From a virus (Duplodnaviria > Heunggongvirae > Uroviricota > Caudoviricetes), in IMG/VR virus record IMGVR_UViG_2713896904_000009: a stretch of 29,612 nt of DNA. One strand, given 5' to 3'. The translations under genes were made by a program, and so were the position numbers. Shown here in pieces: positions 1,061-29,612 of this stretch. A model generated the notes under the pieces. That model was given only the letters and a program-made list of their open reading frames with translations, made no database searches and had not been told where the DNA came from. Within the stretch, counting starts at the first letter, position 1, and every line of letters starts with the position of its first letter.

Positions 1061-1187
1061 ATCATGATTGGACGGTGTAAGGACAACACCAGCAAAAACA
1101 GGAAGTTAGAAGTCTCAGCAGGACACCGACCAGACGGTGAGGGGACAAAAAAGGATACGCAAAGGAGCCGCGGCTCCCGAGTGACAT

Positions 1188-1216
1188 AAAAGCCCGCTTA
1201 CGCGGGCTTTTTGTTT
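1188..1216 (+). terminator. rho-independent terminator-like hairpin
   Basis: Stem AGCCCGC / GCGGGCT with TTAC loop (1191-1208) followed by a T-rich tract TTTTTGTTT. Confidence 0.5.
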
Positions 1217-1483
1217 ATGCTCATTCTCCACACTCAATGCGACCACAAACAACAGCCCACTTTTCTTTCAGTATGGACTGTCACCGTCATGCCAGCCTTT
1301 TAGCCATAACTGATGTAAGCGTCTGCTATGAGCGAGATATAGTCATTCATTTCTTCGTTTCTTCAGAACACCTATATTGTTCTGAGGTGAACATATCACC
1401 TCCGTTCAAGCAACCAAATTCTGTGTGCCATTACAGAAGGATATAATGCCGGGAAACTGTGCGCCGAATGTCAGGTTAGTGCG

Positions 1484-2089
1484 TCATCCCTTCATTAGGG
1501 TTACTAGTTGCCTAAAGTCATCCATATATTCTTGTCCGAACGTTTTAAAATAAGGTTCAAAACGCGTGATAATGTCCGTGATTACTGGTCCCAGAATCGA
1601 CCTGAACTGAGCGATATCAATACGGTTATTTACAACGGAGAAACGGACCTGTTCAAAATAGTTTGAGACCAGAATAACCGACTGTTTGAGCTCCTCATCT
1701 GCTTTGATTCTTTCGACCAGAGCGTTATCACTTAATGATGACCTAGCTTCTTTTATTTCCCGAGTCAATTTCCTGGCCGAGAAAAGATGAGGGTCATCCC
1801 ATTTTTCAATCAGGCGAAACGTATTCTCAATTTTTTCTGCCATCCTGCTTTCCACTGCGTTTGTAGCATTGATATACAGTGGCAGTATGACACCGAGTCC
1901 ACCTAGACACAGGGAGACGGTTTTCGTGACCTCAATAAATACACTACTGCCTAAAGGGGGGGGACTATTATATGCAATCATGGCAAGCCCCCCAGTTCCA
2001 ATAACGCAAAGAATGATGATTACCCAGAATAAATGCCATTTGTATTTCAAGTGAGGCTCCTGCCAGAAATGATGTAACTTTACGGTCAC
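1484..2089 (-). CDS. hypothetical inner-membrane protein (two predicted N-terminal TM helices plus about 120-aa soluble domain); att-proximal moron
   Basis: 201-aa ORF with a GTG start at 2089 and no clear SD; an alternative ATG at 1981 is preceded by GGGGGG. Hydrophobic segments WHLFWVIIILCVIGTGGLAMIAY and VSLCLGGLGVILPLYI. No catalytic motif recognised. Confidence 0.55.
   Translation of the reverse strand: MTVKLHHFWQEPHLKYKWHLFWVIIILCVIGTGGLAMIAYNSPPPLGSSVFIEVTKTVSLCLGGLGVILPLYINATNAVESRMAEKIENTFRLIEKWDDPHLFSARKLTREIKEARSSLSDNALVERIKADEELKQSVILVSNYFEQVRFSVVNNRIDIAQFRSILGPVITDIITRFEPYFKTFGQEYMDDFRQLVTLMKG
1956..1963. repeat. G8/C8 homopolymeric tract inside the membrane-protein ORF
   Basis: Eight consecutive G on the plus strand, read as CCC CCC CC (Pro-Pro-Pro) in the minus-strand ORF. 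Confidence 0.9.
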
Positions 2090-2402
2090 GCCGGGGATAT
2101 TGTCATTTCAGTTTGTCAGACTGGTGTGCCGGCCTATTATTATTGTCGGGAAGATCATGAGATGGCAAGAGATGAATATCAGTGATGGGAGACATTAAAA
2201 ACAGTTATGTAGGGCGAAACTGAGCCAGTACTGGGAAACTGGAAACGTCTTTCAAACTCCTTACGGCGAGATCTGGCGTTACTGCTAGATCATTATGAAT
2301 GTGTCAGTAATCCATCAAAATCTTTGCGAATGTATCCATTTCTTTCAACTTGAGCAGATAGCACGATGCCTTAAGGCTGTTTATTTATACAGTTTAAAAT
2401 AA

Positions 2403-2422
2403 TACTGTATATAAAAATAGTA
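2403..2422. promoter_or_regulatory. putative LexA (SOS) box upstream of the dinI-like gene
   Basis: TACTGTATATAAAAATAGTA fits the CTGT-N8-ACAG consensus with one mismatch (ATAG for ACAG); lies 12 nt upstream of the dinI-like start and overlaps an AT-rich -10-like region. Confidence 0.45.
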
Positions 2423-2434
2423 TAGGGTGTTTTT

Positions 2435-2683
2435 ATGCGTATTGAGATCTGCATAGCCAAAGAGAAAATGACTAAACTGCCAAACAGTGCTGTGGATGCG
2501 TTAAAGGGAGAATTAACCCGACGCATCAGTAAGCGTTATGACGATGTAGAAGTGATCGTAAAAGCCACCAGCAATGATGGGCTTTCTATTACACGCACCG
2601 CAGATAAGGATTCTGCAAAAACTTTTGTTCAGGAGACTCTGAAAGATACCTGGGAGTCTGCTGACGAGTGGTTTGTTCACTAA
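2435..2683 (+). CDS. DinI-like damage-inducible protein
   Basis: 82-aa ORF starting [11 protein letters not shown]... and ending ...[11 protein letters not shown], matching the DinI family signature (MRIEV.IAK ... ETWESADDWF) as I recall it; typical prophage cargo. Confidence 0.85.
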
Positions 2684-2751
2684 TTAGCACGTAAAATCTG
2701 TAACGGCTGGAAATCATTCAATACTCGCACTATCGGAAGTTCACCAGCCAG

Positions 2752-2966
2752 CCGCAGCACGTTATTGCGTACAACGTGTCTGCGGCATACCACAAAACGA
2801 TTACTCCATAACAGGGACTGCAGGCCACTCAATATCCGGTGCTACTGATATATCAACTCGGTTCAGCAACACCCGATATGTCTTCCATGCCGCCAGTAAC
2901 GATGTCTCCTCCTCCGTCGCAATATCCAAATCTACGGCATCCTGAAGTGGCGCAATATGCTCACTG
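2752..2966. repeat. direct repeat copy 1 (tail-fibre-assembly 3' end plus downstream hairpin)
   Basis: About 215 bp roughly 85 percent identical by eye to 3803-4016; includes inverted repeat CCGCAGCACGTT-N9-AACGTGtCTGCGG (2752-2785). Confidence 0.7.
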
Positions 2967-3070
2967 AATTCCTGGATGAAGAACTGTGTGGTGACGGTCT
3001 TCCAACCATTCGGCTCCTGCTGTATCGAAGAATACCAGACTATTTCAATATCGCTATGCCGTGGCATCAT
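2801..3070 (-). CDS. short tail-fibre-assembly-like protein (conserved C-terminal domain only; possible remnant or alternative chaperone)
   Basis: 89-aa ORF; last about 54 aa ([45 protein letters not shown]) closely parallel the C-terminus of the full Tfa at 3850-4434; N-terminal 35 aa are unique. Confidence 0.55.
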
Positions 3071-3126
3071 TTAACCCCTTGTAATTCATCGCAATAATTG
3101 ATTTAATTCACAAATAAAACTATAAC

Positions 3127-3795
3127 ATGGTGAAATTAATGAAAAAAAACACAGATGATGGGGCTAAAATTTACACACCACTTACCCTAAAGCTTTATGA
3201 CTGGTGGGTTTTGAGAGTATCAAATCGGCTTGCATGGGGATGTCCTACAAAGGAACACCTTCTTCCACACTTTCTGGAACATTTAGGTAACAACCATCTG
3301 GATATTGGTGTTGGAACTGGGTTTTACCTTACTCACGTACCTGAGAGTAGTCTGATATCTTTAATGGATTTGAACGAAGCTAGCCTGAACGCGGCATCTA
3401 CAAGGGCAGGGAAATCAAAAATTAAACATAAAATTAGCCATGATGTTTTTGAACCTTATCCCGCGGCGTTACATGGTCAATTTGATTCCATTTCCATGTT
3501 TTACCTTCTTCACTGCCTGCCTGGAAATATATCTACAAAAAGCAGTGTAATACGCAATGCGGCGCAGGCCTTAACTGACGATGGAACTCTATACGGAGCC
3601 ACAATTCTTGGCGATGGAGTTGTGCACAATAGCTTCGGTCAAAAACTGATGCGCATTTACAATCAGAAAGGCATCTTTTCAAACACAAAAGATTCCGAAG
3701 AAGGCTTAACACATATACTCTCAGAGCATTTCGAGAATGTTAAAACCAAGGTTCAAGGTACTGTAGTAATGTTTTCCGCTTCAGGAAAAAAATAG
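3127..3795 (+). CDS. class I SAM-dependent methyltransferase (substrate unknown); moron
   Basis: 222-aa ORF with a Rossmann motif-I-like LDIGVGTGFY; AT-rich relative to the flanking tail genes; opposite strand to the late operon. Confidence 0.65.
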   Translation: MVKLMKKNTDDGAKIYTPLTLKLYDWWVLRVSNRLAWGCPTKEHLLPHFLEHLGNNHLDIGVGTGFYLTHVPESSLISLMDLNEASLNAASTRAGKSKIKHKISHDVFEPYPAALHGQFDSISMFYLLHCLPGNISTKSSVIRNAAQALTDDGTLYGATILGDGVVHNSFGQKLMRIYNQKGIFSNTKDSEEGLTHILSEHFENVKTKVQGTVVMFSASGKK

Positions 3796-3802
3796 CATTC
3801 AA

Positions 3803-4016
3803 CCGCAGCACGTTCTTGCTTAAGACTTGCTGCGGCATAATCCCAATGATTACTCCCTGACAGGGTTCGTAGGCCACTCAATATCAGGTGCAGTTGATGT
3901 ATCAACACGGTTCAGCAACACCCGATACTTTTTCCAGGCTTCCAGTAACGATGTCTCCTCCTCCGTCGCAATATTCAAATCTACGGCATCCTGAAGTGGC
4001 GCAATATTCTCACTGG
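3803..4016. repeat. direct repeat copy 2 (tail-fibre-assembly 3' end plus downstream hairpin)
   Basis: Homologous to 2752-2966; includes inverted repeat CCGCAGCA-N17-TGCTGCGG (3803-3835) between the convergent methyltransferase and tfa genes. Confidence 0.7.
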
Positions 4017-4434
4017 CTACCCGCATTAGGCTGTTTTTTGTTTCTTCCGCCTCCCGTATCCGAAACAGTTTTTCTGCTTCTGCATCTTTCACCCAAATTA
4101 TGCCGTTCCACTTCTGATATTCCCCATCCGGCGACAACCAGGTGACATTTTCCGGTAACGGGCCGAGTTCAGAAATAAATAACGCGTCCCCTGATGCCAC
4201 GTCATAGACCGTTTTTTCCCTGTGGTCTTCAACGAGATGCCATGATGTATCCTCACTGTTAAAAACAGCCACGAAGCCAGCCGGAATATCTGGCGGTGCA
4301 ATATCGGTACTATTTGCAGGCAGACCTGTATGAGGGGGAATGTATGCATCACCTTCACCAATAAATTCATTGGTTCCGGCCAGCAGATTATAAATTTTTA
4401 TAGTCCGTGGTTGTTCACTCATTCTGAATGCCAT
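3850..4434 (-). CDS. tail fibre assembly protein (Tfa chaperone)
   Basis: 194-aa ORF starting [17 protein letters not shown] with conserved Tfa C-terminus; start ATG overlaps the stop of the upstream fibre gene (TAATG). Confidence 0.85.
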
Positions 4435-6122
4435 TATGCAAGCCTCACAATATAGTTAAATGCGATGTTTTTGACGGTGTTTTCCGCGTTACCAGCAGCG
4501 TTAACGGTGATGGTGTGTCCATGTGCACCCAGCGCCACAGTGTGTGCATGGGCACCAATACCTACGGTGTGGTTATGCTGACCAATATCGACTGTATGGG
4601 CGTGTGCTCCGTCAGAGCTTGACACCTGGTTGGTTCCTGACACCTGAACACGTTGTTTACCCCCAATGGAGTCACCACCGTAACGACCACCGACAGTGTG
4701 CGTATGCGCTCCTGTATTGTTTGTCGTTTTTGTGCCGTGGTTAAACGTGCTGACTGTTTTTGTCCCGTAATCAAACGAACTGGTTGTTTTCGTACCCAAA
4801 TCCGTACTGGATGCACTGGCACTGTGGGTATGCGATTTAATGCCGTCCTGTTCCTGAGACAATACAGCGCGACCACTGGCGGGTTTGCCCTTAATTGTCC
4901 AGCCACGCATATCAGGGATCACACCAGATGGGTAAGCTGCTGCAAGCAGGGGATAGGCAGCCTTGTCAAAAGTCTGCCCCTGCATAATCGCATAACCTTC
5001 CGGAACTATGTCCGAAGGCCAGGCTATTGGTGCCCCCACAGGAAAAGCATTAACAGGTTCAAATCCCCGTTCAAATCCATACCCATCACGGGATGAGCGG
5101 TAATAAAGCCCTCTGTTTTTATAATCCGCACGTAGCTGAAATGACCGGCAACTCCCTACACCACTAAAAAAATGAGCAACGATATATGAAGCGCCGCCGT
5201 CCATGACATTGTAAAGACCGCTTTTTGCGTTCCATGGCACCCCACCATCTGAACTCGGATACTGACCTGTACACCCAAGAGAAAAAGCATTTACATCTTC
5301 AGGTGATAACTTAATGTCAGATGACAGCGCGTGACCATTAACCTTACGTCCTGAGGGCACACGCCCGTTTGCATTGTCATTAGCAGCTTTCACTGCTTTC
5401 GGAGTCGCGGCAAGCGTTTCAGAGTCACTGTTAGTGGCGCTGCTTAACTGAACAATCCCTTTTCGTGCCGTGGTGGCGTCCTGTGCAGTGTATTTGCCAT
5501 CAGCAAGGTCATATGCTGTCTTAACCGCCTTTGATGTCGCTGCCTGTGTCTCACTGGTGCTGTTCACCGCACTGTTCAGTTGCACCAGACCTTTTTGCTT
5601 AGTCGTGGCATCCAGAACACCAAGAGACTCGCGGGATTCTTTTTGCGCGCCAGCTCCGCGCGCTTTTATTTCCTTCAGGTTCTGGTCAATGCGCAGAAAA
5701 AGTCCGTCTCCCGTTGCCACATTTAACGTGATGTTTGAGGTGTCAGATACAGCAAGCCGGAACTGCATATTGACACTGACACCGCCAACCGGTTTGTCAA
5801 TCGCCGGGCAGTTCGCCACGGCATACAATTCCCCTCCATCAGTCATCAGTCCCACTTCGCGGACTTTAAAACCTCCCGTTCCCGTTGGTAGCACAATTCT
5901 GGCCATGAGCTGTGTCGGCAGTTCCGGTGATACCACCAGCTCTGCAATATCTCCACGGTAGGTTTCATTAACAAGCTGCGTTTGTGCCGGATCGGGTTTC
6001 AGCGGTTTGCCATTACTGTCGCCAACCACAAACTGTGTCAGAATAATCTGGCTACCACTGGCAAGCGCTTCCGCCTCCAGTTCTTTTCCCCGGTTAGTAA
6101 TAATTGAATAATATTCAGCCAT
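4434..6122 (-). CDS. tail fibre protein (P2 gpH / Mu S-like N-terminus, His-rich C-terminal receptor-binding repeats)
   Basis: ATG at 6122 ([23 protein letters not shown]...), 2 nt after the gpI-like stop. Internal repeats ([31 protein letters not shown] / [31 protein letters not shown]) and C-terminal [21 protein letters not shown] repeats. Confidence 0.85.
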
Positions 6123-6678
6123 GAGACTCCCCGGCAAAAATATCCACATCGATATGTGCTGTCGTCGCACCTGAAATATAAAAAGCGCCATCCATCCCGA
6201 TATTCGCCAGAACATCTATTTTGCTCAGATGACTGCGCAGGTTTTTAGCCCGGTCAGTAAGCTGACGAATCTGGTGATACAGTGCATCGCTGACGCCCTG
6301 ACTGCTGTGAACTTCAATCCGGAATGTGTAGGGTGCAGCCTGCGGTGAATCCTGCCACCACTCCACGACAGTGGTCGGCAGGTTTACCGCCCCCAGAGAA
6401 CGCCTGACCGCACCCGCCGTTCCCCGGTGCTGGTGCACGTAAGCGGCGTCCTTAATCACCTGGCGCTTTTGTGTCTCTGTCCAGCTGTCATCCCAAAAAT
6501 CGACGGCATGTTCCCACGCAAGCCACGGTAAAAGATGTGCCGGGCAGCTGGCCGCATCTTTCACCTTACGCACCATGTTGGTATCCAGTGCGATGATGTG
6601 TTCTGTCGTCGCCTGCTCCTGCGCCCGTTCTTCATGAAATGCGCCCGGCGGCAGCAGGGAGCGAAATTTATCCGTCAT
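6115..6678 (-). CDS. baseplate/tail protein, P2 gpI-like
   Basis: 187 aa; motif [18 protein letters not shown]...KRQVIKDA...[10 protein letters not shown] parallels P2 gpI (LLPWLAW..VD.WD..W...KR.VI.DA..H.KGT.GA.RR) as I recall it. Confidence 0.85.
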
Positions 6679-7588
6679 GGCTACTTACCTCCCTGCGGGT
6701 GACGTTGATGGCAGTACACCACGGTGCTTTTCCGGCTTCGGCTTCCAGATCAGCCACGGGGGAGATCAGTCTGACGCGAACCACACCGGATTGCTGTAAA
6801 GCGGCATAGATGGCAGATAACGGCACCACGGTGTTAATCCGGTGAGACAGCATGGTGTAGGACTGCAAGGCTTCAATGGCATTGTTCAGAACTGTCGTGG
6901 CGTCCGGGCCGTCCGGGATCTCCAGTTCAGCCGTGATGGCATAATTTGTGATGGTGGCGCTCTTCACCGTCACGTAGTCTGTCAATGGACGGATTTCATC
7001 GGCATTCAGTGTGCTGTTAACTTTATCCAGCAGTGTTGCAGCTGCTGTTCCGTCTCCCGTACGGGAAAGCACATACACATCAACACACCCCGGGCGGCTG
7101 TGTGTTTCGGGGCCATAAGCTTCAGCATCCAGCACATCGGTATCCGCCGATTTCGCATGGAAGCGGTAAGCGTTGCGGGCACCCGCCGTATTTAGCTGTG
7201 CCCAGGACAACTGAATACGTTCACGAAATGCGCCGTCATCTTCCAGTTCCACTTCGACGGGGGGAACGGCATCCGGATCACCCGGTCTGATAACCTGGCG
7301 TTTAACATTGAAGGCAGCGCCAATCTGATCAAGGTCTGCGCCTCTGGCGCTGGCAAGAAATACTGCCCGCACTGCATCATTGACACGCTGAAAGGCCAGC
7401 GTCAGCTGATATGCATTCACCTCTCCCTGTTTAAACGCCGGATCGGACTCTACCAGCGCATCAAACTGCGGATCCAGCTCCTGCAGACGTGCCAGCCATC
7501 GGGAGAAAATCTCTGCGGCATCCGGCACTACAAGCGCATCAGGAACAGCGAGTTCCGACAGATTGATCACATCATAACTGTTGGGCAT
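6668..7588 (-). CDS. baseplate assembly protein, P2 gpJ-like
   Basis: 306-aa ORF between the gpW-like and gpI-like genes with overlapping start/stop coupling; size and position match the baseplate J family. Confidence 0.75.
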   Translation of the reverse strand: MPNSYDVINLSELAVPDALVVPDAAEIFSRWLARLQELDPQFDALVESDPAFKQGEVNAYQLTLAFQRVNDAVRAVFLASARGADLDQIGAAFNVKRQVIRPGDPDAVPPVEVELEDDGAFRERIQLSWAQLNTAGARNAYRFHAKSADTDVLDAEAYGPETHSRPGCVDVYVLSRTGDGTAAATLLDKVNSTLNADEIRPLTDYVTVKSATITNYAITAELEIPDGPDATTVLNNAIEALQSYTMLSHRINTVVPLSAIYAALQQSGVVRVRLISPVADLEAEAGKAPWCTAINVTRREVSSHDG

Positions 7589-7925
7589 TTAGCGTTATTT
7601 CTCCTGTTCTGACGGGTAAGCCGTCTTCTTTGTTGATCCCTTCGATATCCAGAACACAACCGGATTCGCCCGCCGGGAAGGTGACCATCACCCGCGTCAC
7701 CTTTAAACGCGGCTCCCAGCGAGCCAGTGCAGTCGCTGAAGCGGCGATTATCCGCAGACGCGTCAGGTCATCCCGTGGGTTATCCAGCAACGAAAACAGT
7801 TCACTGCCATAGTCACGGATCAGCACACGACTCCCGACGGGCGTGGTCAGAATGTCCCGGACAGACTGGCGCAAATGCGCCACGCCAGACAGACGTTTGC
7901 CTGTCCGGCTGTTTACACCGTTCAT
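7572..7925 (-). CDS. baseplate wedge protein, P2 gpW / T4 gp25-like
   Basis: 117 aa; ILTTPVGSRVLIRDYGSELFSLLDNP parallels P2 gpW ILRTPVGSRVMRRDYGSLLASMIDQP as I recall it. Confidence 0.85.
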   Translation of the reverse strand: MNGVNSRTGKRLSGVAHLRQSVRDILTTPVGSRVLIRDYGSELFSLLDNPRDDLTRLRIIAASATALARWEPRLKVTRVMVTFPAGESGCVLDIEGINKEDGLPVRTGEITLNAQQL

Positions 7926-7965
7926 GATGATTTTCCGTTACAAAAGCGCCGGATGGCGCGATGGA

Positions 7966-9084
7966 TTAACCGAAGTAAGCCGGACCAGTTTTATCCTGTT
8001 GCTTCGATTTTTTTGCTGATTTTTGTGGTTTGTGAATATCCACCACCAGATTGCAGGTATAACTGAATCCGGCAGCGGTCAGTGAAAAGACCAGCGACTC
8101 AACCACCCAGGCTCTGTCTTCCCGGGTACCAAATCCTGAGGTTGCCCCCCCTGCTTCTGCCGTCAGGGGAATATGCTGTGGTCGGCAGGGGCCGGTGAGC
8201 GTCATTTTCTGCTCATTCCGTCTTGCCTGTGTTTTTCGTGCTTTCGCCTGCTTCTCTGCCGTATCCTTTTCTGACTGGGTATACGGGTTGGTCATTGCCG
8301 GTCCGTCATGTTCGACCGCTGCGGTTTTTGTCCTGCCATCCACTTCATCGTAATAGCGAACCCCGATTTTCTCTTTTGCTTTACCCCCGCTTTCCGTGAC
8401 TTTACCCGTGGAACTCCCCCGCTCACCTTCACTGTATGACCACGTTGTCACGTCTGCAGGCGTAATGGTGATACTGTCAATCTGTTTACCGGAAACTGTC
8501 GCTGTCGCCCCCTGCGGCAGAAAAAGCCAGTAACCACCGGAAGGTTTACTCACCGCGTTGTAGATGCGGGCAAGCCGGGACAGCAGGTTAGCATCAGATT
8601 CAGCCACCTGGTCGATGTGGTTAATGTGAATATCTTTCAGCGCGGCAGCGACTCTGGGGATCAGGCCATTATCGGTGGCCACGGTTTTCACCACATCCTC
8701 CAGACGAATGTTATCCCAGCTTCGTGTTTTCTGACTGGTGACGTCACCGGGTTGCTTGCGTGCATTCATGGGCGCTGCGGTGGCATAAATTTCAATGCGC
8801 CTCGGTGGCCCACTGCTGGCAACTCCGCTGACAACAAACCAGCCTTTATCGACAAGCTGCTCATTAAATCCCAGCGCAACCTGTAGTCGCGCCCCTCTGG
8901 GCGGAAGTGTCAGCGTTTCAGAAAGCAGGGTAATTTTCAGTTCATCGGCTCTGGCGGTCGCGCCACCGTAATCTGTCAGCGTCAGTTCAGAAAGGCATTG
9001 CTCAAGTATGCGGGTAATATCTTTCCCTTCTGCCTTTATGCGGAATGCTGGCGCATATTCAGGAGTCATCGTCTGAGAAACCAT
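7966..9084 (-). CDS. tail protein, P2 gpD-like (late control D family)
   Basis: About 372 aa from ATG 9084 (1 nt after the gpX-like stop); position after U and X-like genes and size fit the gpD family. Confidence 0.75.
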   Translation of the reverse strand: MVSQTMTPEYAPAFRIKAEGKDITRILEQCLSELTLTDYGGATARADELKITLLSETLTLPPRGARLQVALGFNEQLVDKGWFVVSGVASSGPPRRIEIYATAAPMNARKQPGDVTSQKTRSWDNIRLEDVVKTVATDNGLIPRVAAALKDIHINHIDQVAESDANLLSRLARIYNAVSKPSGGYWLFLPQGATATVSGKQIDSITITPADVTTWSYSEGERGSSTGKVTESGGKAKEKIGVRYYDEVDGRTKTAAVEHDGPAMTNPYTQSEKDTAEKQAKARKTQARRNEQKMTLTGPCRPQHIPLTAEAGGATSGFGTREDRAWVVESLVFSLTAAGFSYTCNLVVDIHKPQKSAKKSKQQDKTGPAYFG

Positions 9085-9085
9085 A

Positions 9086-9301
9086 TTAATCCCATAAGCT
9101 GAAAGCAGACTCCACAACCGGGATCACCCGTTCCGGCAGAATAACAGACAGACCGGAGGGATATACCGCGCCACGATCAGCCAGCCCGGGATTTGCCTCC
9201 AGAACCTGGATTATCGTGTCAGCGAGATTTTCGCTGCCATAGTGCGCGGCGCAAATCGCATCCAGCACATCACCGTCACGGGTTTGATATATCGTCGGCA
9301 T
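9086..9301 (-). CDS. tail protein X (P2 gpX-like)
   Basis: 71 aa; DGDVLDAICAAHYGS...LEANPGLADRGAVYPSGLSVILPE parallels P2 gpX (GDTLDAIC..YYG...VLAANPGLAELGAVLPHGTAVELPD) as I recall it. Confidence 0.85.
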   Translation of the reverse strand: MPTIYQTRDGDVLDAICAAHYGSENLADTIIQVLEANPGLADRGAVYPSGLSVILPERVIPVVESAFSLWD

Positions 9302-9746
9302 AGTGTTTCAGTGTCATTGTCCAGTTTTTATTACGGTGACCACCTCCCGGCAGGAACCGGTTAGTGGTGTCAGTAAAGTCAGTTACCACCCACCATCCCA
9401 GAACATCCCCTTCTCCACTGACCAGCTGCAGTGGCTTCGCCTGGTCGGCAAGAGCAAACAGGTCATTGACGGGGCCAACACCTTTTCGAAAAAAGGCATG
9501 GGATTCGCCTTCAAGTCTGACGGTACGCCCCGGCTTTCCGGTGTACTGGAGAAGATCCTGCTTACCAATGCGCTCCTGTTCGCTCCAGCGCCAGGTTGCT
9601 TCGCGGGTCAGCTGGTTATAGGCTGTCGTATCAATCGAAAAAGCAAAATCTCCCAGCATCATCATCACGCGGGTGGTTACTGCCGAACGCAGGTTTTCAG
9701 CCTGTTGCTGACCAAATTCATCAATAAAAGACATGAAATTACTCAC
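9276..9746 (-). CDS. tail protein U (P2 gpU-like)
   Basis: 156 aa; MMMLGDFAFSIDT near the N-terminus and TLKHYADD near the C-terminus match P2 gpU hallmarks; start overlaps the tape-measure stop (ATGA). Confidence 0.8.
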   Translation of the reverse strand: MSNFMSFIDEFGQQQAENLRSAVTTRVMMMLGDFAFSIDTTAYNQLTREATWRWSEQERIGKQDLLQYTGKPGRTVRLEGESHAFFRKGVGPVNDLFALADQAKPLQLVSGEGDVLGWWVVTDFTDTTNRFLPGGGHRNKNWTMTLKHYADDISNP

Positions 9747-11653: not shown

Positions 11654-11755
11654 GGTTCATCGTCTCCAGTTCATCAGTAAGAAAATCAGAGAAAGTGCTG
11701 AACGGCATATCCAGATAGTCCGACATAGGAAAATGCAGTCGCCGTCCAAGGAGTT

Positions 11756-12067: not shown

Positions 12068-12068
12068 T

Positions 12069-12089
12069 AAAAAACGGCCCGCAGGCCGT
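12069..12089 (-). terminator. rho-independent terminator-like hairpin after the tail tube gene
   Basis: Minus-strand ACGGCC-TGCG-GGCCGT stem-loop followed by TTTTT, between the tube stop (12114) and chaperone start (12067). Confidence 0.5.
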
Positions 12090-20264: not shown

Positions 20265-20480
20265 TTACAGAAAGTTAGCGAGTTTGAAGTTGGTGCCGCG
20301 ACCGTTGACGGCCTGCCAGCGTTTTTCCCAGTATTCAAGCTCTTTACGAAGTGCGACGGGATCATGGTTGGTAATGGCGCGCCCATTCACGCCAGTAAAA
20401 GACACGCTTTTCCCGTCCAGAGAATCACGATACGCCTGGCGTACCGTGACCAGCATCTGCTGGATTTCAGATTTCGTCAT
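20265..20480 (-). CDS. head-tail joining protein (lambda gpW-like)
   Basis: 71-aa ORF between terminase large subunit and portal, the lambda gpW position; start overlaps the terminase stop. Confidence 0.6.
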   Translation of the reverse strand: MTKSEIQQMLVTVRQAYRDSLDGKSVSFTGVNGRAITNHDPVALRKELEYWEKRWQAVNGRGTNFKLANFL

Positions 20481-22597: not shown

Positions 22598-23116
22598 TTA
22601 CTCCTCTTGTGACAAACTGTCCTCCTGTTCCGGCGACTCTGCCAGCTCAACCTTCATGGCAATCTGATCCCGCAGGTCATCTATGACTTTTTGCACCCTG
22701 ACGACGGCTGACGGTGTCATTGCACAGTCACGCTCGAGAATATCCGGTAGCGTTTCCAGTACCTGAACGACAGCTTTTGCCATTGAGGCAAACTCCCGGC
22801 TGACTTCTGAGGCCGGGATAAGCTCTCCGGTCTCCTGCTGAAACTTGAGGCGCTCCCGCTCAGACTGAAACCACGCCTTTCGATCCGGCGGTGTCATTTT
22901 GTCAACAGCAACCAGCTCCGGCGTCGTAGTCCTGCCCAGTAATTCCCTGAGAATATCCAGAACTGAATACAGCTTGAGGCGGGAGTTACTTCCGGGGGCA
23001 GGCTCAACATTGCTCAGTCTACTTGCGACGGTCTGACGATGCAGATTAGTCAGCGCCGCCAGCTGGTTAATATTGAGGCGAAGATTTTTCAGTTCGTTAT
23101 CCATGATGGTGAACAA
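22598..23116 (-). CDS. terminase small subunit (HTH DNA-binding)
   Basis: 172 aa; N-terminal HTH-like LNINQLAALTNLHRQTVASRL, acidic C-terminus; stop 3 nt before the large-subunit start. Confidence 0.7.
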   Translation of the reverse strand: MFTIMDNELKNLRLNINQLAALTNLHRQTVASRLSNVEPAPGSNSRLKLYSVLDILRELLGRTTTPELVAVDKMTPPDRKAWFQSERERLKFQQETGELIPASEVSREFASMAKAVVQVLETLPDILERDCAMTPSAVVRVQKVIDDLRDQIAMKVELAESPEQEDSLSQEE

Positions 23117-23305: not shown

Positions 23306-23668
23306 TCACTTTTTGTGCAGATATTGTTGAATAAGTTTTTCTTTTTTCTCCCGATAAGTAGCAGCTTCGGAAATAACCTGATCAGCCGTTTTTCCATTGA
23401 ACACTACCAGACTCATTTTCTTCGAAGAGTAACTTTTATCGTTGCTTAACTCTGCCTGAGTATCGTAGTACCCCAAAGTATCGACAATCGCCGTTTTCAA
23501 TTCGGCCTTCTTCTCTTCAGATAATGACTCAAAGACTTTTTCTGCTGAATATCGGAGCGATTCCTGGCTGGTACCATCAAATTTAGGTGCGTTGTCACAA
23601 CCACTCACTAATAGTGATATCACTAACAAAATTGAATTTTTTATATTCATATCGTTAACCTCATCCAT
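23306..23668 (-). CDS. putative lipoprotein (moron between lysis genes and terminase)
   Basis: 120-aa ORF (start may be the internal MNIKNS at 23650); signal peptide with lipobox LLVSGC; AT-rich. Confidence 0.6.
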   Translation of the reverse strand: MDEVNDMNIKNSILLVISLLVSGCDNAPKFDGTSQESLRYSAEKVFESLSEEKKAELKTAIVDTLGYYDTQAELSNDKSYSSKKMSLVVFNGKTADQVISEAATYREKKEKLIQQYLHKK

Positions 23669-23720: not shown

Positions 23721-23990
23721 CTATTTATATTGATCGGCGTTATTACGCAGCTGCTCAATTATTCGGATTTCTTTTTTGTCCTGATTGCACTGCCCTAATG
23801 CTGACAACAAATCAACACTCAGGTCGAGGCTTGCGCCATATGTGAGCGGTTTTGGTATTAGCGGTACAGGAGTTTCAGACGTCAGGCTGGGTGGCAGTGG
23901 TGTCACCGGAACGCTCACGTAAACTGTCCGCGTACTTCCGCAACCGGTCAGCAGCGGCAGCAGGCACAGGACGTGAAGCACAATCATCAT
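23721..23990 (-). CDS. o-spanin Rz1-like lipoprotein (overlapping Rz in another frame)
   Basis: Alternative-frame ORF starting MMIVLHVLCLLPLLTGC (lipobox), Pro-rich mature region; begins inside Rz and extends past its stop. Confidence 0.6.
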   Translation of the reverse strand: MMIVLHVLCLLPLLTGCGSTRTVYVSVPVTPLPPSLTSETPVPLIPKPLTYGASLDLSVDLLSALGQCNQDKKEIRIIEQLRNNADQYK

Positions 23991-24267
23991 CCGCAACAGC
24001 CATTTTGATATCTTCCTGGGTTCTCTGTGACTCCAGTGCGATCTGCTGTTTTGCATGCTGGTTAGCCTCCAGTACTGTATTGACGATTTGCAGTGATTGC
24101 AGGACGTTATTGGTAATGGCAGTTGCCGATTTGGCATTTTGTACAGCCTCATCAGCACGTCTCTTTTCGTGCTGATATTTGCTGTAGTAGTGGTTGGCTG
24201 ACCAGATGAAAGAACTGACGACAGTTAAAAGGAATGCAGCGATAACCAGCTTATAGCTCAACTTCAT
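23875..24267 (-). CDS. i-spanin Rz-like protein
   Basis: 130 aa with N-terminal TM helix (LVIAAFLLTVVSSFIWSANHYY) and coiled-coil periplasmic domain; directly downstream of the endolysin. Confidence 0.8.
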   Translation of the reverse strand: MKLSYKLVIAAFLLTVVSSFIWSANHYYSKYQHEKRRADEAVQNAKSATAITNNVLQSLQIVNTVLEANQHAKQQIALESQRTQEDIKMAVADDDCASRPVPAAAADRLRKYADSLRERSGDTTATQPDV

Positions 24268-24727
24268 TTACCACCCCACCAGCCTCTTTAAATCGGGCAA
24301 TCAGGTCACCGATTTTATGTTCATACTGACCGTAACCTGCACCGGGTAATGAAGCCCATATATTGCTGCAACGGTCGATTGCCTGACGAATATCGCCGCG
24401 ATCAATCATCGGCAAAGCGCCACGCTCTTTAATCTGTTGCAGTGCCACAGCGTCCTGGTTTTTTGGAGAGAAGTCTTTCAGGCCAAGCTGTTTACAGTAA
24501 GCATCCCACCAGCGTGAAAGAATCTGATAACGACCAGCTGCTGTTGATTTAAGTTTCGGGTTTAGTGTGACAAGTTTGCGAGGATGATCGGAGTAATCAG
24601 TGAATAGTTCGCCTCCAACAATAACGTCATAACCGTGGTTACATGTCGGTTGCCGTCCATTATCCGTTCCTTCTGACCATGCCACCATATCGAGGAAAGC
24701 TTTACGCTGGGAATTTAGTACCTGCAT
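24251..24727 (-). CDS. endolysin, lambda R-like lytic transglycosylase
   Basis: 158 aa; NQRKAFLDMVAWSEGTDNGRQ...HGYDVIVGGELFTDYSDHPRKLVTLNPKLKST...RYQ is near-identical to lambda R as I recall it. Confidence 0.95.
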   Translation of the reverse strand: MQVLNSQRKAFLDMVAWSEGTDNGRQPTCNHGYDVIVGGELFTDYSDHPRKLVTLNPKLKSTAAGRYQILSRWWDAYCKQLGLKDFSPKNQDAVALQQIKERGALPMIDRGDIRQAIDRCSNIWASLPGAGYGQYEHKIGDLIARFKEAGGVVNEVEL

Positions 24728-24730: not shown

Positions 24731-25090
24731 TTACTCCTTAGAGCCACCAAACTTGTTACCGATTACTCTCATTGCAGCCCCACGAATTGCATCGACCCCG
24801 ATCAGCCCCACCCCACCACCAATGGCAACAGAAAGCGATTTAGGCCATCCGACATACTCAAGCGCGGATGCAAATGTCAGCGTCAGAGCGCCACAGAGCA
24901 AAATTTCGAGTGTTTTTCGTTTCCAGCCGCCACCACCACCAAAATAGGCAATACGCAAACCAGCCATAACAATCGACATAATCACTGCGCCCAGCGGCGT
25001 ATCTCCACGCCACCAGCTCTGGAACAACTCCAGCCAGTCCGGCCAGGTATTTGGGTTATGAGGCATTTCGTCATCTCTCACCTCGCACAT
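24731..25090 (-). CDS. holin, lambda S family (class I, three TM)
   Basis: 119-aa ORF upstream of the endolysin; LGAVIMSIVMAGLRIAYFGGGGG parallels lambda S [20 protein letters not shown]; two in-frame Met (M1, M9) could give a dual start. Confidence 0.75.
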   Translation of the reverse strand: MCEVRDDEMPHNPNTWPDWLELFQSWWRGDTPLGAVIMSIVMAGLRIAYFGGGGGWKRKTLEILLCGALTLTFASALEYVGWPKSLSVAIGGGVGLIGVDAIRGAAMRVIGNKFGGSKE

Positions 25091-25295: not shown

Positions 25296-25820
25296 ATGGA
25301 GAAATTAATGAAACTATTTATGGTTGATCGCCGAGGAATATACTCAACAGGCGATATCGTTACACCAAAGCAATTCTCCGATATAACTCCTGTTGAAATG
25401 TCATCTCTGGTAGACAAACTTTTTCCGCGCGGGCTTGCTCCACAAGGCGAAGGATACCTCATTAATAATGCGGCAAAAATTTATAATAAAAACGAACTCA
25501 TCGACTGGGGACTTGAGTTTTACCGAAGAGGAGTTTGCCCGCAAAAACCTTCTCGCTATACGTCACTCTTCGCCTGGGGTAACCTGGAGGAGGCTAAACA
25601 TTTTCGACTTACAGACGGAAAACCATCAGATAAAATTTTCATAATACAAACAGATAGTTATCATCGCGGAGATATGTCATTATTAAGAAATGATACATCG
25701 GTATTGGAATTCACCTACAGAATGGAGCTTTACTGGTCAGGAAAAACTTTTAACCCTGATCCAGTCTGGGAATACATTTGTCCGTTACCAGTAACTATCG
25801 GTGAACAAGTCCTTGCTTAA
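25296..25820 (+). CDS. hypothetical protein (antisense moron within the late region)
   Basis: 174-aa ORF; likely start is the second ATG at 25308 (GGAG 8 nt upstream). AT-rich; an imperfect inverted repeat TGGCGATAT...ATATCGCCA-like lies upstream. No motif recognised. Confidence 0.5.
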   Translation: MEKLMKLFMVDRRGIYSTGDIVTPKQFSDITPVEMSSLVDKLFPRGLAPQGEGYLINNAAKIYNKNELIDWGLEFYRRGVCPQKPSRYTSLFAWGNLEEAKHFRLTDGKPSDKIFIIQTDSYHRGDMSLLRNDTSVLEFTYRMELYWSGKTFNPDPVWEYICPLPVTIGEQVLA

Positions 25821-26074
25821 TCCCCTTCATCCCAATAAAGACCTTTCGCGGCACAATGAGGACGGTAAGGATAGCAATAACTTGCTCTGACGTTACCAAC
25901 CAGCGTGCCACTTTCTTTGAATGCCTTATCTCCGTTCTTGAGCTGTGATAAGGCATTTTCAAGCTCAGCTATAGCGACAGCCATGTCTTCGCTTTCTACA
26001 TACAGTGAAAAACCTTTAATGGGTGAACTCATGGTAAGTGGGATCATAGATATTTGATGATGGTGTGAATGCAT
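25817..26074 (-). CDS. hypothetical small protein (His-rich N-terminus), downstream of the DNA methyltransferase
   Basis: About 85 aa from ATG 26074 (strong SD GGGAGG 6 nt upstream; MHSHHHQISMIPL...); stop overlaps the stop of the convergent plus-strand gene. Confidence 0.45.
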   Translation of the reverse strand: MHSHHHQISMIPLTMSSPIKGFSLYVESEDMAVAIAELENALSQLKNGDKAFKESGTLVGNVRASYCYPYRPHCAAKGLYWDEGD

Positions 26075-26124
26075 AAATAGCCTCCCAGTGAAAAAATTAG
26101 CGAATAAAAGCTCTGACACCAGAA

Positions 26125-27177
26125 TTATTTCCCCACCAGTTCACTTACCTCTTTCACCGTCTGGTTAAACCGATCTGACTCAAGCTCAACACCTAACGCC
26201 CGACGCCCCATCGCCATTGCTGCTTTTATTGTGGAACCGGATCCCATAAAGAAATCAGCAACCAGATCGCCTGGTCGACTACTGGCATTGATTATTTGCC
26301 GGAGCATATCCGCAGGCTTCTCACACGGATGTTTACCCGGGTAGAACTGAACGGGTTTATGCGTCCAGACGTCGGTATAAGGCACGGAAACTGATACGGA
26401 GAAATAGCGCCGGAGAGTTTTAAACTCATCCAGCAATTCAGAATATTTGCGATTCAGTGAATCATAAGATGCCACCAGCTGGTGGTGTGGTTGTTCCAGT
26501 TGTTGTTCCTGAAACTTCTCTGCCGCTATACGGGAAAACAGTGCCTGCAACTTCCGGTAGTCAGCCTCATTCGGCAACTGCCACTGACTGGCACCAAACC
26601 AGTGGGAAACCATGTTTTTCTTACCAGTGGCTTCGGCAATCTGTTTTGCCGTTATACCCAGTTCGGCACGAGCATCCCTGAAATACGAAATCAGCGGTGC
26701 CATTATGTGCTGTTTGAGTTGACTTTCTTTTGCCGCATAGCCGTCACTTTTGCCGCGATATGGCCCCTGGTAATGTTCAGCAAACAGAACGCGTTCTGTT
26801 GCGGGAAAATATGCGCGCAGACTTTCTTTATTACACCCGTTCCATCGTCCGGACGGCTTCGCCCAGATAATATGGTTAAGAACGTTGAAACGTTCACGCA
26901 TCATGATCTCGATATCAGATGCGAGGCGATGTCCACAGAACAGGTAAAGGCTTCCGGCAGGTTTCAGCACCCGCCAGAACTGAGCCAGACAGTGGTCCAG
27001 CCACTTCAGGTAATCTTCGTCCCCTTTCCACTGATTGTCCCAGCCGTTGGGTTTCACCTTGAAGTACGGCGGATCGGTAACAATCAGGTCAATGGAATCA
27101 TCAGGCAGGGACTGAATAAAATGCAGGCAATCAGCGTTGATTAAATCAACACTGTTTATTTTTACAGTATTTTTCAT
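26125..27177 (-). CDS. orphan DNA methyltransferase (beta-class N6-adenine or N4-cytosine)
   Basis: 350 aa; motif IV DPPY near the N-terminus (LIVTDPPYF) and motif I FxGSGST near the C-terminus (DFFMGSGSTIKAA). No adjacent restriction endonuclease gene. Confidence 0.85.
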   Translation of the reverse strand: MKNTVKINSVDLINADCLHFIQSLPDDSIDLIVTDPPYFKVKPNGWDNQWKGDEDYLKWLDHCLAQFWRVLKPAGSLYLFCGHRLASDIEIMMRERFNVLNHIIWAKPSGRWNGCNKESLRAYFPATERVLFAEHYQGPYRGKSDGYAAKESQLKQHIMAPLISYFRDARAELGITAKQIAEATGKKNMVSHWFGASQWQLPNEADYRKLQALFSRIAAEKFQEQQLEQPHHQLVASYDSLNRKYSELLDEFKTLRRYFSVSVSVPYTDVWTHKPVQFYPGKHPCEKPADMLRQIINASSRPGDLVADFFMGSGSTIKAAMAMGRRALGVELESDRFNQTVKEVSELVGK

Positions 27178-27225
27178 GGATCAGTAAGCGTAACTCTGGT
27201 AGGCTCACTCTGCTTTTGCGCTAAA

Positions 27226-27245
27226 GCAGTGGGCCGCAGTGGGCC
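27226..27245. repeat. tandem direct repeat 2 x GCAGTGGGCC upstream of the DNA methyltransferase
   Basis: Perfect 10-bp tandem duplication; adjacent hairpin TGCTTT-N6-AAAGCA (27211-27228). Confidence 0.6.
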
Positions 27246-27337
27246 GAGGTTCGCTTGTGACCAGTAAGCATGAGCGAATGGCTGGCAGGTGCTACCAACA
27301 CCCACCAGCCGCCCATTTTCACAGCAGGAAACCGCCA

Positions 27338-27565
27338 TTACTGGCAGCGTCTGAATTTATTCCCGTACCCGCCGTTATCCTTCGCCAGACCCGCCATAAC
27401 TAACTGAGTCAGTATTAACTGGCACCGGGCTTCGCTTACTCCGGTAGTTCTCGTCATCATGCGTGGCGTTACCCACTTGTCAGCAGGTAAGAAATGAAGG
27501 ACTGCAGCGGCGGTTTCTGTCATATCTTGCTGTTTTAGCATGTCTTTTTCCCTTCTGGTTAACAT
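27338..27565 (-). CDS. small putative winged-helix DNA-binding protein
   Basis: 75-aa ORF (alternative start 27541 with SD AAGGG); central segment AVLHFLPADKWVTPRMMTRTTGVSEARCQLILTQLVMAGLA resembles small wHTH regulators of about 70 aa. Confidence 0.4.
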   Translation of the reverse strand: MLTRREKDMLKQQDMTETAAAVLHFLPADKWVTPRMMTRTTGVSEARCQLILTQLVMAGLAKDNGGYGNKFRRCQ

Positions 27566-27661
27566 GACATACCAATAACTCTTGTCTAAAAAGCCAGCAA
27601 GATAAAAAGTCAGTATTCACGACCACCAGCGTGTTTACTGTACTGCACCAGGTTTACAGGT

Positions 27662-27683
27662 ACAAAAAACCGCTCAGCGGCGG
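27662..27683 (-). terminator. terminator-like hairpin (minus strand)
   Basis: Minus-strand CCGC-CGCTGA-GCGG followed by TTTTTTG; short stem. Confidence 0.35.
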
Positions 27684-27805
27684 ATTTAAGTTGTGTGGCG
27701 AAGTAACCACTCTTAACACGATATAATACTTTTTGCGTACGCGTTAGGATTTTTATAAACTATGCGTCCCCATTCTCGCTATCTTTAGTCGGTCCTGGAA
27801 TACAC

Positions 27806-28732
27806 ATGAAAGTTAGAAGCATAGGATTTACAATAAATAACAATAACAAAAACATTAATACCGTTGACGTAATGAATGCTTTTATCAACGCATCAAACAG
27901 AGAACACAGTCGCACAGACTATACTCGTAAAATTCTCATTTCGGATGTGAATGATTTCTATTATGGATTAGTTGTCACATTCAGAAACCAAAAAAAGAAC
28001 TGTAAGTCGCAATTTGTTGATGGTAAATTCCAGCTTAAAATTGAAGATCTTAAAGGAAGTGACAAACTTGCTAATTTCAACTTTTTCTTAATTAAAAAAT
28101 CTAATCTTTCTGGTCTCTATATGTATCACCACGGTTCATGCAGTCTGAACACTCTCTTTTCTCATTTAGAAACAATAAGTAATGAATTTATCAGAAATCA
28201 AAATAAAGAAGAAATAAAAAAACTTGGTGATAAACCAAAACAAAAAGAAGTAACTGCAATAAATAAAAAATACAAAGAAAGACTGACTTTCAGCCTTATG
28301 ACAAATAAAAACAACATTCAGAGTGTTTTATGTCAATTCAAAGAGATTAAAAGGACAAGCTTTAAATTTAATTATATAGATTTTAAAGGTGGACCAATGA
28401 CTGCGCTTGAACAATTTGTTAACACCACCACAATAGATATGAATTTTAATTCTAGCGACAGAACAAAAGTGCAACAACTATCTCAGAATCTTTCAAATAT
28501 TTATAATTCTATGAGTGGAGTTGATAAAGCACAGGTTATTGCAGTAAACCATGCAGGGATAGAAAAAACCATTGATTTTATGAACTGCCCTGTTTTTTTT
28601 GAAACATACGATTTCGATGTAATTGCCGATAAAGTCAATGGATTGACAAACGATAATTATACAACAAACCCTGTTTTTGATATGATAAAAGAAGAAATGC
28701 TGAACGGGACGAATAAAAATGCCTTTATATGA
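27806..28732 (+). CDS. hypothetical soluble protein, component A of a two-gene AT-rich cassette (candidate defence/abortive-infection sensor)
   Basis: 308-aa ORF, very AT-rich and Asn/Lys-rich; preceded by TATAAT at 27722-27727; no Walker A, DxD nucleotidyltransferase or HEPN-like motif seen by eye. Confidence 0.6.
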   Translation: MKVRSIGFTINNNNKNINTVDVMNAFINASNREHSRTDYTRKILISDVNDFYYGLVVTFRNQKKNCKSQFVDGKFQLKIEDLKGSDKLANFNFFLIKKSNLSGLYMYHHGSCSLNTLFSHLETISNEFIRNQNKEEIKKLGDKPKQKEVTAINKKYKERLTFSLMTNKNNIQSVLCQFKEIKRTSFKFNYIDFKGGPMTALEQFVNTTTIDMNFNSSDRTKVQQLSQNLSNIYNSMSGVDKAQVIAVNHAGIEKTIDFMNCPVFFETYDFDVIADKVNGLTNDNYTTNPVFDMIKEEMLNGTNKNAFI

Positions 28733-29267
28733 ATGGCTAATAAATAAAAGATTGAGGTATCAGTACCTTACACTGCTTGCATTCTCGATCCTGGCATTGC
28801 TTGCACTTTACCTATTGTACAGAAACACACCTAAAGTAAGTGTTAACTTTTTTGATTTTTATCATAAAAACTTACGAGGCTATCTCTTCTCCGGTTTTAT
28901 TTCCGTGGGCTCATTTTTATTGAGCCTACATACCTTTGTCATAATAAATTTACGCGATAAGGTTTTTGCAACTCAGGAATATAAGGAAATTTATAGCATT
29001 GCCACTGGTATATCTATTGACAAAATCAATGATAGTGTATTTTATAAACCTTTAGACAATTTATCCTCATTTATTAATACATCAATATTATGTTCTATCA
29101 CAACAGCAATTGCACAGTTCACTATTGGACTTTCAACTAATTTATATGCATGCTTATTTTGCGTATGGCTTGCAATACTAACGGTATTTCTTTTATTACA
29201 TTGCCTCATCATAATCAGACAAAATATTAAAATTTTATTAAAGCAACAGAGAAAAAAAGGGGGGTAA
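28719..29267 (+). CDS. hypothetical four-helix membrane protein, component B of the cassette (candidate membrane effector)
   Basis: 182-aa ORF whose start overlaps the end of component A by 14 nt; four hydrophobic helices (about residues 17-35, 55-78, 124-140, 144-168); basic C-terminus. Confidence 0.6.
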   Translation: MPLYEWLINKRLRYQYLTLLAFSILALLALYLLYRNTPKVSVNFFDFYHKNLRGYLFSGFISVGSFLLSLHTFVIINLRDKVFATQEYKEIYSIATGISIDKINDSVFYKPLDNLSSFINTSILCSITTAIAQFTIGLSTNLYACLFCVWLAILTVFLLLHCLIIIRQNIKILLKQQRKKGG

Positions 29268-29275
29268 TTCCCCCT
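29252..29275. terminator. bidirectional terminator hairpin between the convergent cassette and Q gene
   Basis: AAAAAAA-GGGGG-TAATT-CCCCC; read on the minus strand the hairpin is followed by TTTTTTT, i.e. a strong terminator just downstream of Q. Confidence 0.5.
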
Positions 29276-29279
29276 AATA

Positions 29280-29612
29280 TTACAACATTGAAAGCACACC
29301 ATCCAGAAAACCAAGAGCTGTTTGCAACTCTTTTCTTATTGTCCCATCAGAACACTTCTGCTTCTTTGCAATAGTTCTTAGTGAGATGCCGATAACAAAA
29401 TGAGCAATAACCAACTCATACTCTTCGGGCTTATATTTCCGCAATCGCGCAACACAGCTGTCAATCATGATTCCTTCATCATCATCGCATTGTTGGCGTG
29501 TTTTCTTTCCATGAGGTAGTAAACCTTTAAACCCTGCAGCAACAAGCTGCCAGTCCACACCACTGTTATCTGCTGCAGCCCATGCTCCCCAGCGGTCCAA
29601 TACTTCATACAT
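29280..29612 (-). CDS. late-gene antiterminator Q, phage 21 type (may be truncated at the window edge)
   Basis: 110-aa ORF starting at the window edge; motifs DRWGAWAA, AAGFKGL, QCDDDEG, ARL and CSDG match the Q21-family pattern as I recall it. Confidence 0.7.
   Translation of the reverse strand: MYEVLDRWGAWAAADNSGVDWQLVAAGFKGLLPHGKKTRQQCDDDEGIMIDSCVARLRKYKPEEYELVIAHFVIGISLRTIAKKQKCSDGTIRKELQTALGFLDGVLSML

Follow-up and report, generated by a model that had tools for sequence, protein, structure and literature searches.

A lambdoid prophage with a P2-type contractile tail at the ssrA gene of a probable non-coli Escherichia: attachment site, orientation, and module relationships

The window analysed here is a 29,612-nucleotide stretch of tailed-phage DNA (Caudoviricetes; record IMGVR_UViG_2713896904_000009) that begins with the host genes smpB and ssrA, the latter encoding transfer-messenger RNA (tmRNA), and continues 3′ of these two genes with approximately 28.5 kb of phage-derived DNA, from 1061 to the window end. 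We conclude, with a probability of roughly 0.8, that the window comprises the left attachment site (attL) and the late half of a temperate lambdoid myovirus that was inserted at a 25-bp core in ssrA by an integrase of the phiNP/LLS type that is encoded past the end of the contig. The evidence consists of the gene content, the attachment core, the homology of the ssrA trailer that follows it, the synteny with functional phages, and the full length of the late genes.

All substantial open reading frames (ORFs) in the window were profiled against Pfam, and then against PHROG, NCBIfam, PADLOC, and PDB as required (Table 1). Based on the nucleotide identity of smpB and the smpB-ssrA spacer to E. 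coli (93-94%), the host is probably a non-coli Escherichia, possibly E. albertii. The right edge of the window is the end of the source contig BBVR01000026.1 (position 53045; assembly GCA_001514825.1), which lies inside the antiterminator gene Q, and a 4.8-kb Logan contig (run DRR017194) likewise terminates inside Q. Because the Q-lysis segment is so similar to those of many E. coli prophages, this stop is most simply read as a repeat-induced assembly break. The contig stops inside Q, such that the early region and the integrase are out of reach, and the window covers only the ssrA-proximal junction and the late half of the element.

Attachment site at ssrA

Lambdoid prophages of E. coli and E. 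albertii frequently occupy ssrA, a site well documented for them (PMC10673567). For Citrobacter rodentium phage phiNP, the 25-bp sequence shared by its phage and bacterial attachment sites (attP and attB) was mapped experimentally to the 3′ end of ssrA, and positions 1036-1060 of the window, the final 25 nt of ssrA, are the reverse complement of the published sequence (PMC6456863). The window contains one exact copy of this core, whereas none is expected by chance. The phiNP record opens at the core and aligns with window 1036-1177 at 88% identity, and the annotated attP/tmRNA pseudogene of Escherichia phage LLS aligns with window 1022-1212 at 90.6% identity. A preliminary description of this DNA, made from the sequence alone, had placed a prophage at ssrA with its attachment core either near the 3′ end of that gene or in 1061-1483, and the match to the phiNP core supports the former placement.

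The comparison with E. coli SW071611, which carries a prophage remnant at ssrA, leads to the same boundary. Mismatches between the window and this genome are dense up to position 688, are reduced to one at 1009 (within the near-invariant ssrA), and are absent over 1010-12343. Since species-level divergence gives way to identity at this point, the left boundary of the prophage lies in the 3′ end of ssrA and can be fixed at 1036-1060. The identical segment corresponds to 35810-47143 of the SW071611 locus (L001). Such 100% identity over 11.3 kb beside flanks that are 7% diverged indicates a recent movement of the phage between Escherichia lineages. A second E. coli genome, EC2, was compared over window positions 1-6000 only, with 98.5% identity overall.

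The 156-nt trailer downstream of ssrA (1061-1216), which includes an intrinsic terminator, is most likely the phage-borne P′ arm of the attachment site. It is assigned to the phage because it is 100% identical between the window and E. coli EC2/SW0716, two hosts that have this prophage in common but smpB flanks 7% diverged, and because LLS and phiNP demonstrably carry such an arm. In all remaining E. coli, the identity of the trailer to the window copy is at most about 96%.

Several further observations were made on this trailer. It is kept both as host sequence and in the attP of several phages, with the homology stopping at the same terminator (compared regions: window 1061-1216, locus L019 2501-2651, and the Nord8 locus L004 about 1444-1628). 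About 600 E. coli genomes appear to have at least two copies. In K-12, the trailer sits at the far end of CP4-57, having been displaced there by that element. Phage Ayreon has the trailer without the ssrA core, and its integrase is unrelated.

Orientation and the predicted integrase

The late genes (Q, lysis, terminase, head, tail, and fibres) are all on the minus strand and point at ssrA. ORF and family scans thus bear out what the preliminary description had reported for the late genes, although five accessory genes (DinI, the S-adenosylmethionine (SAM) methyltransferase, DUF2441, and two low-GC genes) are on the plus strand. That description had also implied that a late end facing ssrA is odd. 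This impression is not supported by the relatives examined, in every one of which the orientation is the same and follows from the layout of attP.

In the attP region of LLS, read in the direction of ssrA, the order is xis, int, a small ORF, the core and trailer, accessory genes, a fibre invertase, and fibres on the opposite strand. The phiNP record runs from the core through DinI, accessory genes, fibres, tail, head, terminase, lysis, methyltransferase, Q, and early genes to xis, int, and an AAA ATPase. In E. coli Nord8, ssrA is occupied by a complete lambdoid prophage whose fibre end adjoins the gene and whose integrase is 42 kb away; a k-mer scan found a direct repeat of the ssrA 3′ end and trailer 45.7 kb downstream, beside glaH. 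The integrases of phiNP, Nord8, and LLS are 85-93% identical to one another. Because int is located upstream of the core, in the direction of ssrA, in all three, integration places the fibre end at ssrA and the integrase about 40 kb from it. The window, with its fibre/accessory end beside ssrA and its late genes running toward ssrA, matches phiNP, Nord8, and the prediction from the LLS attP. Judging from these sequences, a late end at ssrA is the rule for the phiNP/LLS-type integrase family, and the orientation results from how attP is laid out in a known integrase family. Citrobacter phage Chris1 and the prophage of E. coli SC476 have an unrelated integrase and another integration site, and their layout is lambda-style, with the integrase past the fibre/accessory end.

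No integrase domain was found in any ORF of the window by Pfam and further libraries, and a tblastn search of the window with eight proteins of related phages (six integrases, two excisionases) gave a best E-value of 0.019. The earlier statement that the 28.5 kb lacks an integrase therefore stands. Synteny with phiNP, LLS, Nord8, Chris1, and SC476 predicts that the integrase would be past the right edge. In two of these relatives, an AAA-family ATPase gene is found between the integrase and the far attachment repeat (Nord8, L004 2680-4413; phiNP, L008 42059-43846), where Nord8 additionally has a Dam-type methylase; the ATPase looks like conserved cargo beside attP.

These layouts are consistent with the following model. 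A tyrosine integrase of the phiNP/LLS type would recombine attP with the last 25 nt of ssrA. The phage site would carry the 25-nt core and then a copy of the ssrA trailer and terminator, and this phage copy would now complete the tmRNA gene and terminate the tmRNA at 1188-1211. Integration of such an attP must give the order ssrA, core, trailer, accessory genes, fibres, contractile tail, head, terminase, lysis, Q, early genes, xis, int, core, and the original host trailer. From knowledge of the family, Q-dependent late transcription would start just downstream of Q and proceed leftward through lysis, packaging, head, and tail genes toward ssrA. The structural block represents a long-established lineage, shared with Chris1, that has lambda-type packaging and head genes and a distant P2-type tail.

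Mosaicism and age of the structural block

Two parts of the window differ in their closest relatives. The segment from Q to the lysis genes (about 23.8-29.6 kb) shares approximately 96% nucleotide identity with many E. coli lambdoid prophages, while the block from the small terminase to the fibres has its best phage match in Chris1 at approximately 79%. The GC content falls from approximately 0.55 to 0.43-0.49 at about 22.6-23 kb, where the similarity also shifts from Chris1 to the E. coli lambdoid Q-lysis modules. These patterns support different histories for the two parts, and by the same comparisons the Q-lysis cassette is of the exchangeable E. coli lambdoid type.

Across the junction between the lambda-type head and the P2-type tail, the window is collinear with Chris1 and the SC476 prophage. 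Each of the 22 genes that run from the small terminase through gene I is full-length relative to these two, with 63-93% amino-acid identity for all except the cement protein (56% to Chris1 over about half of its ORF, and 48% to SC476 over the full length). In a wider survey, nine species-representative genomes were recovered using the Neck1 protein, and a 21-gene order is shared by seven of them, namely, three Citrobacter, Enterobacter, Scandinavium, Pantoea, and an Enterobacteriaceae metagenome-assembled genome. Citrobacter sp. FP75 is the closest, with 91-97% for the head and first tail genes. The block is rare in E. coli, in which only one of the 5426 complete genomes covers at least 80% of the head/tail junction. 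By this collinearity, the head-tail join is old and conserved as one block across several genera, and no recent event is indicated. The mosaic nature proposed in the preliminary description thus holds for the Q-lysis module relative to the structural block but is not supported for the head/tail join as something notable; the modularity of the element is of the kind usual among lambdoid phages.

The remaining two recovered loci (Erwinia and Cedecea) have the same tail with other heads, and these place the boundary between the head and tail modules between the FII-like connector and Neck1. In Erwinia endophytica (L016) and Cedecea sp. (L017), this tail module is joined to unrelated heads. The Cedecea tail is in the P2 order (V-W-J-I-fibre, then sheath-tube-E-T-U-X-D) and that of the window is sheath-first; both tail gene orders therefore exist in one protein lineage.

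Alternative explanations

Several points weigh against an integrated, complete temperate phage with a phage-borne trailer. The data do not extend to the integrase, the early region, or a second core copy, one core copy is present in the window, and the completeness of the element is unproven. In SW071611, the otherwise identical element survives as a remnant that IS1 has cut within the tube gene. The 156-nt trailer is native downstream of ssrA in 4204 of the 5426 complete E. coli genomes, at 90-95% identity. Diagnostic positions that separate phage from host copies of the trailer were sought and none was found, and the phage origin of the trailer rests on its 100% identity across two hosts with 7%-diverged flanks. 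The explanations considered below are not mutually exclusive with the interpretation that we prefer.

The element may be a defective remnant, with an intact late region but with its early region or integrase lost or disrupted past the contig end, such that neither excision nor growth would occur. We regard this as possible but somewhat improbable. The SW071611 copy was truncated by IS1 with a deletion that extends to gabP, a fragment resembling insertion sequences (ISs) of the IS3/IS911 type occurs at 1349-1450, the truncated fibre-assembly fragment records a past rearrangement, and the contig break conceals everything past Q. On the other hand, measured against a functional phage, no late gene between the small terminase and I, inclusive, is shortened, the lysis genes and the Q frame are open, and a break at a Q that is approximately 96% identical to that of many prophages resembles an assembly break caused by repeats. 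The integrated phage with its integrase and second core copy past Q is still favoured, and it is presumed to be viable.

Alternatively, the phage could have inserted downstream of the ssrA terminator, with an attachment site in 1217-1483 and with 1061-1216 as host chromosome. The trailer is native after ssrA in most E. coli, its identity to the window copy there is at the level expected between species, and no positions tell the phage and host copies apart. However, the trailer is 100% identical to EC2/SW0716 and not above about 96% in other E. coli, beside an smpB that is 7% different; the attP sites of LLS and phiNP contain both core and trailer; and the integration of phiNP at the 25-bp core is experimental. 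We consider this insertion site very unlikely.

It is similarly improbable that resident lambdoid prophages with a common Q region recombined or underwent inversion and thereby placed the late region beside ssrA, in which case the element past Q, with any integrase there, would belong to a different phage. The 96% identity of Q-lysis to many prophages together with the break there points to repeats in this genome, and SC476 and Chris1 carry the structural block at another site and with another integrase, but the ssrA-proximal end has the proper core and trailer and runs unbroken into the fibre end as in phiNP, including DinI near the junction, and module exchange is normal lambdoid evolution that would not change what the element is.

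Gene content

Table 1. Features assigned in the 29,612-nucleotide window, with the supporting family or structure matches.
Feature	Position	Strand	Basis
smpB (host flank)	1-483	+	PF01668, E 1.5e-57
ssrA (tmRNA gene)	698-1060	+	ARAGORN, tag ANDENYALAA; final 25 nt = attachment core
attL core GGTTCAACTCCCGCCAGCTCCACCA	1036-1060	+	Exact match to phiNP core
ssrA trailer and intrinsic terminator	1061-1216 (hairpin 1188-1211)	+	Terminator scan
Accessory (moron) region	1217-3795	both	Pfam, PHROG
DUF4760 gene	1484-2089	-	Pfam/PHROG
DinI gene	2435-2683	+	Pfam/PHROG
Fibre-assembly fragment (truncated, C-terminal)	2801-3070	-	Pfam/PHROG
SAM methyltransferase	3127-3795	+	Pfam/PHROG
Tail-fibre assembly protein	3850-4434	-	PF02413, PF12571, PF03406, PF07484 (jointly with fibre)
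Tail fibre	4434-6122	-	PF02413, PF12571, PF03406, PF07484 (jointly with assembly protein)
Genes I, J, W, D, X, U (baseplate, tail end)	6115-9746	-	Tail_P2_I, Baseplate_J, GPW_gp25, Phage_GPD (below cut-off), Phage_tail_X, Phage_P2_GpU
Tape measure	9743-11653	-	PHROG tape-measure families
Tail chaperone E	11756-12067	-	PF10109
Tail tube	12114-12620	-	Phage_tube
Sheath	12617-14116/14161	-	Phage_sheath_1/1C
V-like baseplate spike	14124-14780	-	Phage_base_V
phrog_1072 protein	14734-15285	-	PHROG
Tail-completion/Neck1 protein	15296-15952	-	PHROG / PF05354 (joining region 14734-16364)
FII-like connector	15954-about 16313	-	PHROG / PF05354 (joining region 14734-16364)
Cement protein	16310-about 16650	-	PF09956
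ClpP-protease/major-capsid fusion	16710-18788	-	PF25209 + PF00574; NF045540 932 bits (cut-off 475)
Lambda-family portal	18745-20256	-	PF05136
gpW-like adaptor	20265-20480	-	phrog_118
GpA-type large terminase	20477-22594	-	PF05876 + PF20454
DUF1441 small terminase	22598-23104	-	PF07278
DUF6694 gene	23306-23668	-	Pfam
Rz1/LysC spanin	23721-23990	-	Pfam, PHROG
Rz spanin, overlapping Rz1	23875-24267	-	Pfam, PHROG
R	24251-24727	-	Lambda lysozyme PDB 1AM7, E 5.6e-94
S-family holin	24731-25066	-	PF05106
DUF2441 / phrog_5663 gene	25308-25820	+	Pfam, PHROG
85-aa ORF	in 25308-29267 region	-	ORF
N6/N4 DNA methyltransferase	26125-27177	-	Library scans
67-aa ORF	between Q and methyltransferase	-	ORF
Low-GC gene 1, 308 aa	27806-28732	+	phrog_2802
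Low-GC gene 2, 182 aa	28719-29267	+	Hydrophobic ORF
Antiterminator Q, 5′ end cut off by contig end	29280-29612	-	PF06530, E 2e-42, profile positions 4-113/118

The order of the late genes is lambdoid, with Q upstream of a holin-endolysin-spanin cassette that is followed by the GpA (cos-type) terminase. Matches in Pfam, PHROG, NCBIfam, and PDB confirm the preliminary assignment of S, R, Rz, and the GpA terminase as lambda-like and of the tail as P2-like; Q, also listed there as lambda-like, belongs to PF06530. The head had been described as HK97-type, for which we found instead a lambda/Shiga toxin (Stx)-phage type with a protease-capsid fusion that is not specifically HK97-type.

For the tail, the proteins I, J, W, D, X, and U match those of Chris1 over the full length with 76-88% amino-acid identity, and the sheath is 84% identical to that of Chris1 and 36% identical to FI of P2 over 71% of its length. 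Judged from these matches, the tail proteins belong to P2-type families and lie at a large sequence distance from P2 itself. An E′ product may be made by frameshifting into the alternative frame, which is open across 11654-11755; no canonical slippery heptamer for this frameshift was found in the 11654-11755 region.

The accessory gene set between ssrA and the fibres is annotated identically in E. coli SW071611. Between the trailer and the DUF4760 gene, about 100 nt (1349-1450) share 76-82% identity with regions of phages Sf6, SfII, and SEN22 annotated as IS911 or IS3-family, and may be an IS remnant. The fibre-assembly fragment and the methyltransferase (2801-3795) occupy the slot of the fibre invertase/alternative fibre segment found in Chris1, LLS, 2H10, and Kati, and this arrangement with the methyltransferase recurs in phages 2G7b and PhiR49_1 at approximately 96%. 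An invertible fibre segment was considered here and rejected, as the window lacks an invertase and the intact fibre-assembly gene and its fragment share one strand.

Two regions between the lysis genes and Q are variable or unusual. The DUF2441 gene, in the interval between the holin and the N6/N4 methyltransferase, is absent from some E. coli Q-lysis modules that are otherwise 96% identical. The low-GC cassette (27806-29267; GC content 0.31-0.34) consists of two overlapping genes on the strand opposite to the late genes, and neither of its proteins has a match in Pfam, NCBIfam, PADLOC, or PDB. The 308-aa protein is rich in Asn and Lys, and its sole match is phrog_2802, a family of unknown function. 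The 182-aa protein is apparently a membrane protein, and an exact-protein look-up found it on only three contigs. This cassette may represent an uncharacterised exclusion or defence moron. A broader proposal is that the phage-borne 3′ end of ssrA with its trailer and terminator is a selected mimic that alters tmRNA 3′ processing or expression in lysogens, and that the low-GC cassette is an undescribed prophage defence or exclusion system. We consider this unlikely, and it touches neither the module mosaic nor the orientation.

Comparison with known systems

Among the phages compared, phiNP (OR565852) resembles the window in being a temperate myovirus with lambdoid order, the same 25-bp ssrA core, a homologous trailer arm, and the same prophage gene order and orientation, with amino-acid identities of 81% for the methyltransferase and 55% for DinI. 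However, identity to the window is only 25-28% in the portal and large terminase, the protease and capsid genes of phiNP are separate, and its tail is of the Mu type (with a DNA circularisation protein, among others) and does not detectably resemble the tail proteins of the window. In a tblastn search of all window tail proteins against phiNP, matches were limited to the fibre C-terminus and the fibre-assembly protein. The Mu/SfV-like tail suggested in the preliminary description was thus rejected, as Pfam assigns P2 families, the phiNP tail is dissimilar (phiNP, not SfV, being the Mu-type tail compared), and the sheath is about 36% identical to FI of P2.

LLS (PQ299149) and Nord8 share with the window their attachment arms (90.6-92% over core and trailer) and the orientation relative to ssrA. 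Amino-acid identity between Nord8 and the window reaches 98% for the methyltransferase and the 67-aa protein of the Q-lysis interval and 91% for the fibre-assembly protein, but the Nord8 tail is lambda-type and non-contractile, and the head proteins are 52-75% identical.

The structural block from the small terminase to the tail fibre has gene-for-gene counterparts in Chris1 (ON041214), Hafnia phage yong2, and the SC476 prophage. These also have a lambdoid early region with the integrase past the fibre/accessory end. They differ from the window in the integrase, which has no similarity to the phiNP family, as well as in the integration site, the lysis/Q region, and the cargo. Chris1 has an ars operon and retains a fibre invertase. 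Chris1 is a published transmissible phage, according to a reference as cited in PMC10284793.

Lambdoids of the lambda/Stx-phage type share with the window a near-identical R (1AM7), an S-family holin, a GpA terminase, a lambda-family portal, and gpW/FII-type connectors; VT1-Sakai, mEp460, and cdtI phages also have the ClpP-capsid fusion head, at approximately 66-68% nucleotide identity. The window differs from them in the contractile tail, the DUF1441 small terminase, the PF06530-type Q, and the LysC-family Rz1. With P2 (Peduovirus), the window shares tail proteins in the families FI, FII, E, U, X, D, V, W, J, and I. P2 has a tail order of V-W-J-I-H-G, then FI-FII-E-T-U-D, while that of the window is V, then sheath-tube-E-T-U-X-D-W-J-I-H-G. 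The head and packaging genes of P2 are Q/P/O/N/M/L, whereas those of the window are lambda-type, with regulation expected to be by Q antitermination. With head and terminase in lambda families and a different tail order, the element is not assigned to the P2-like phages (Peduoviridae).

In summary, three tail types occur among the lambdoid phages that use one attP/integrase system, namely, non-contractile (Nord8), Mu-type (phiNP), and P2-type (the window), which illustrates modular exchange. The significance of the window is mainly for annotation, as this is an ordinary prophage of which both the module mix and the orientation match described phages. phiNP was already known as a lambdoid myovirus at the same site and in the same orientation, Chris1 was known to have the same structural module on a lambdoid backbone, and the window combines both.

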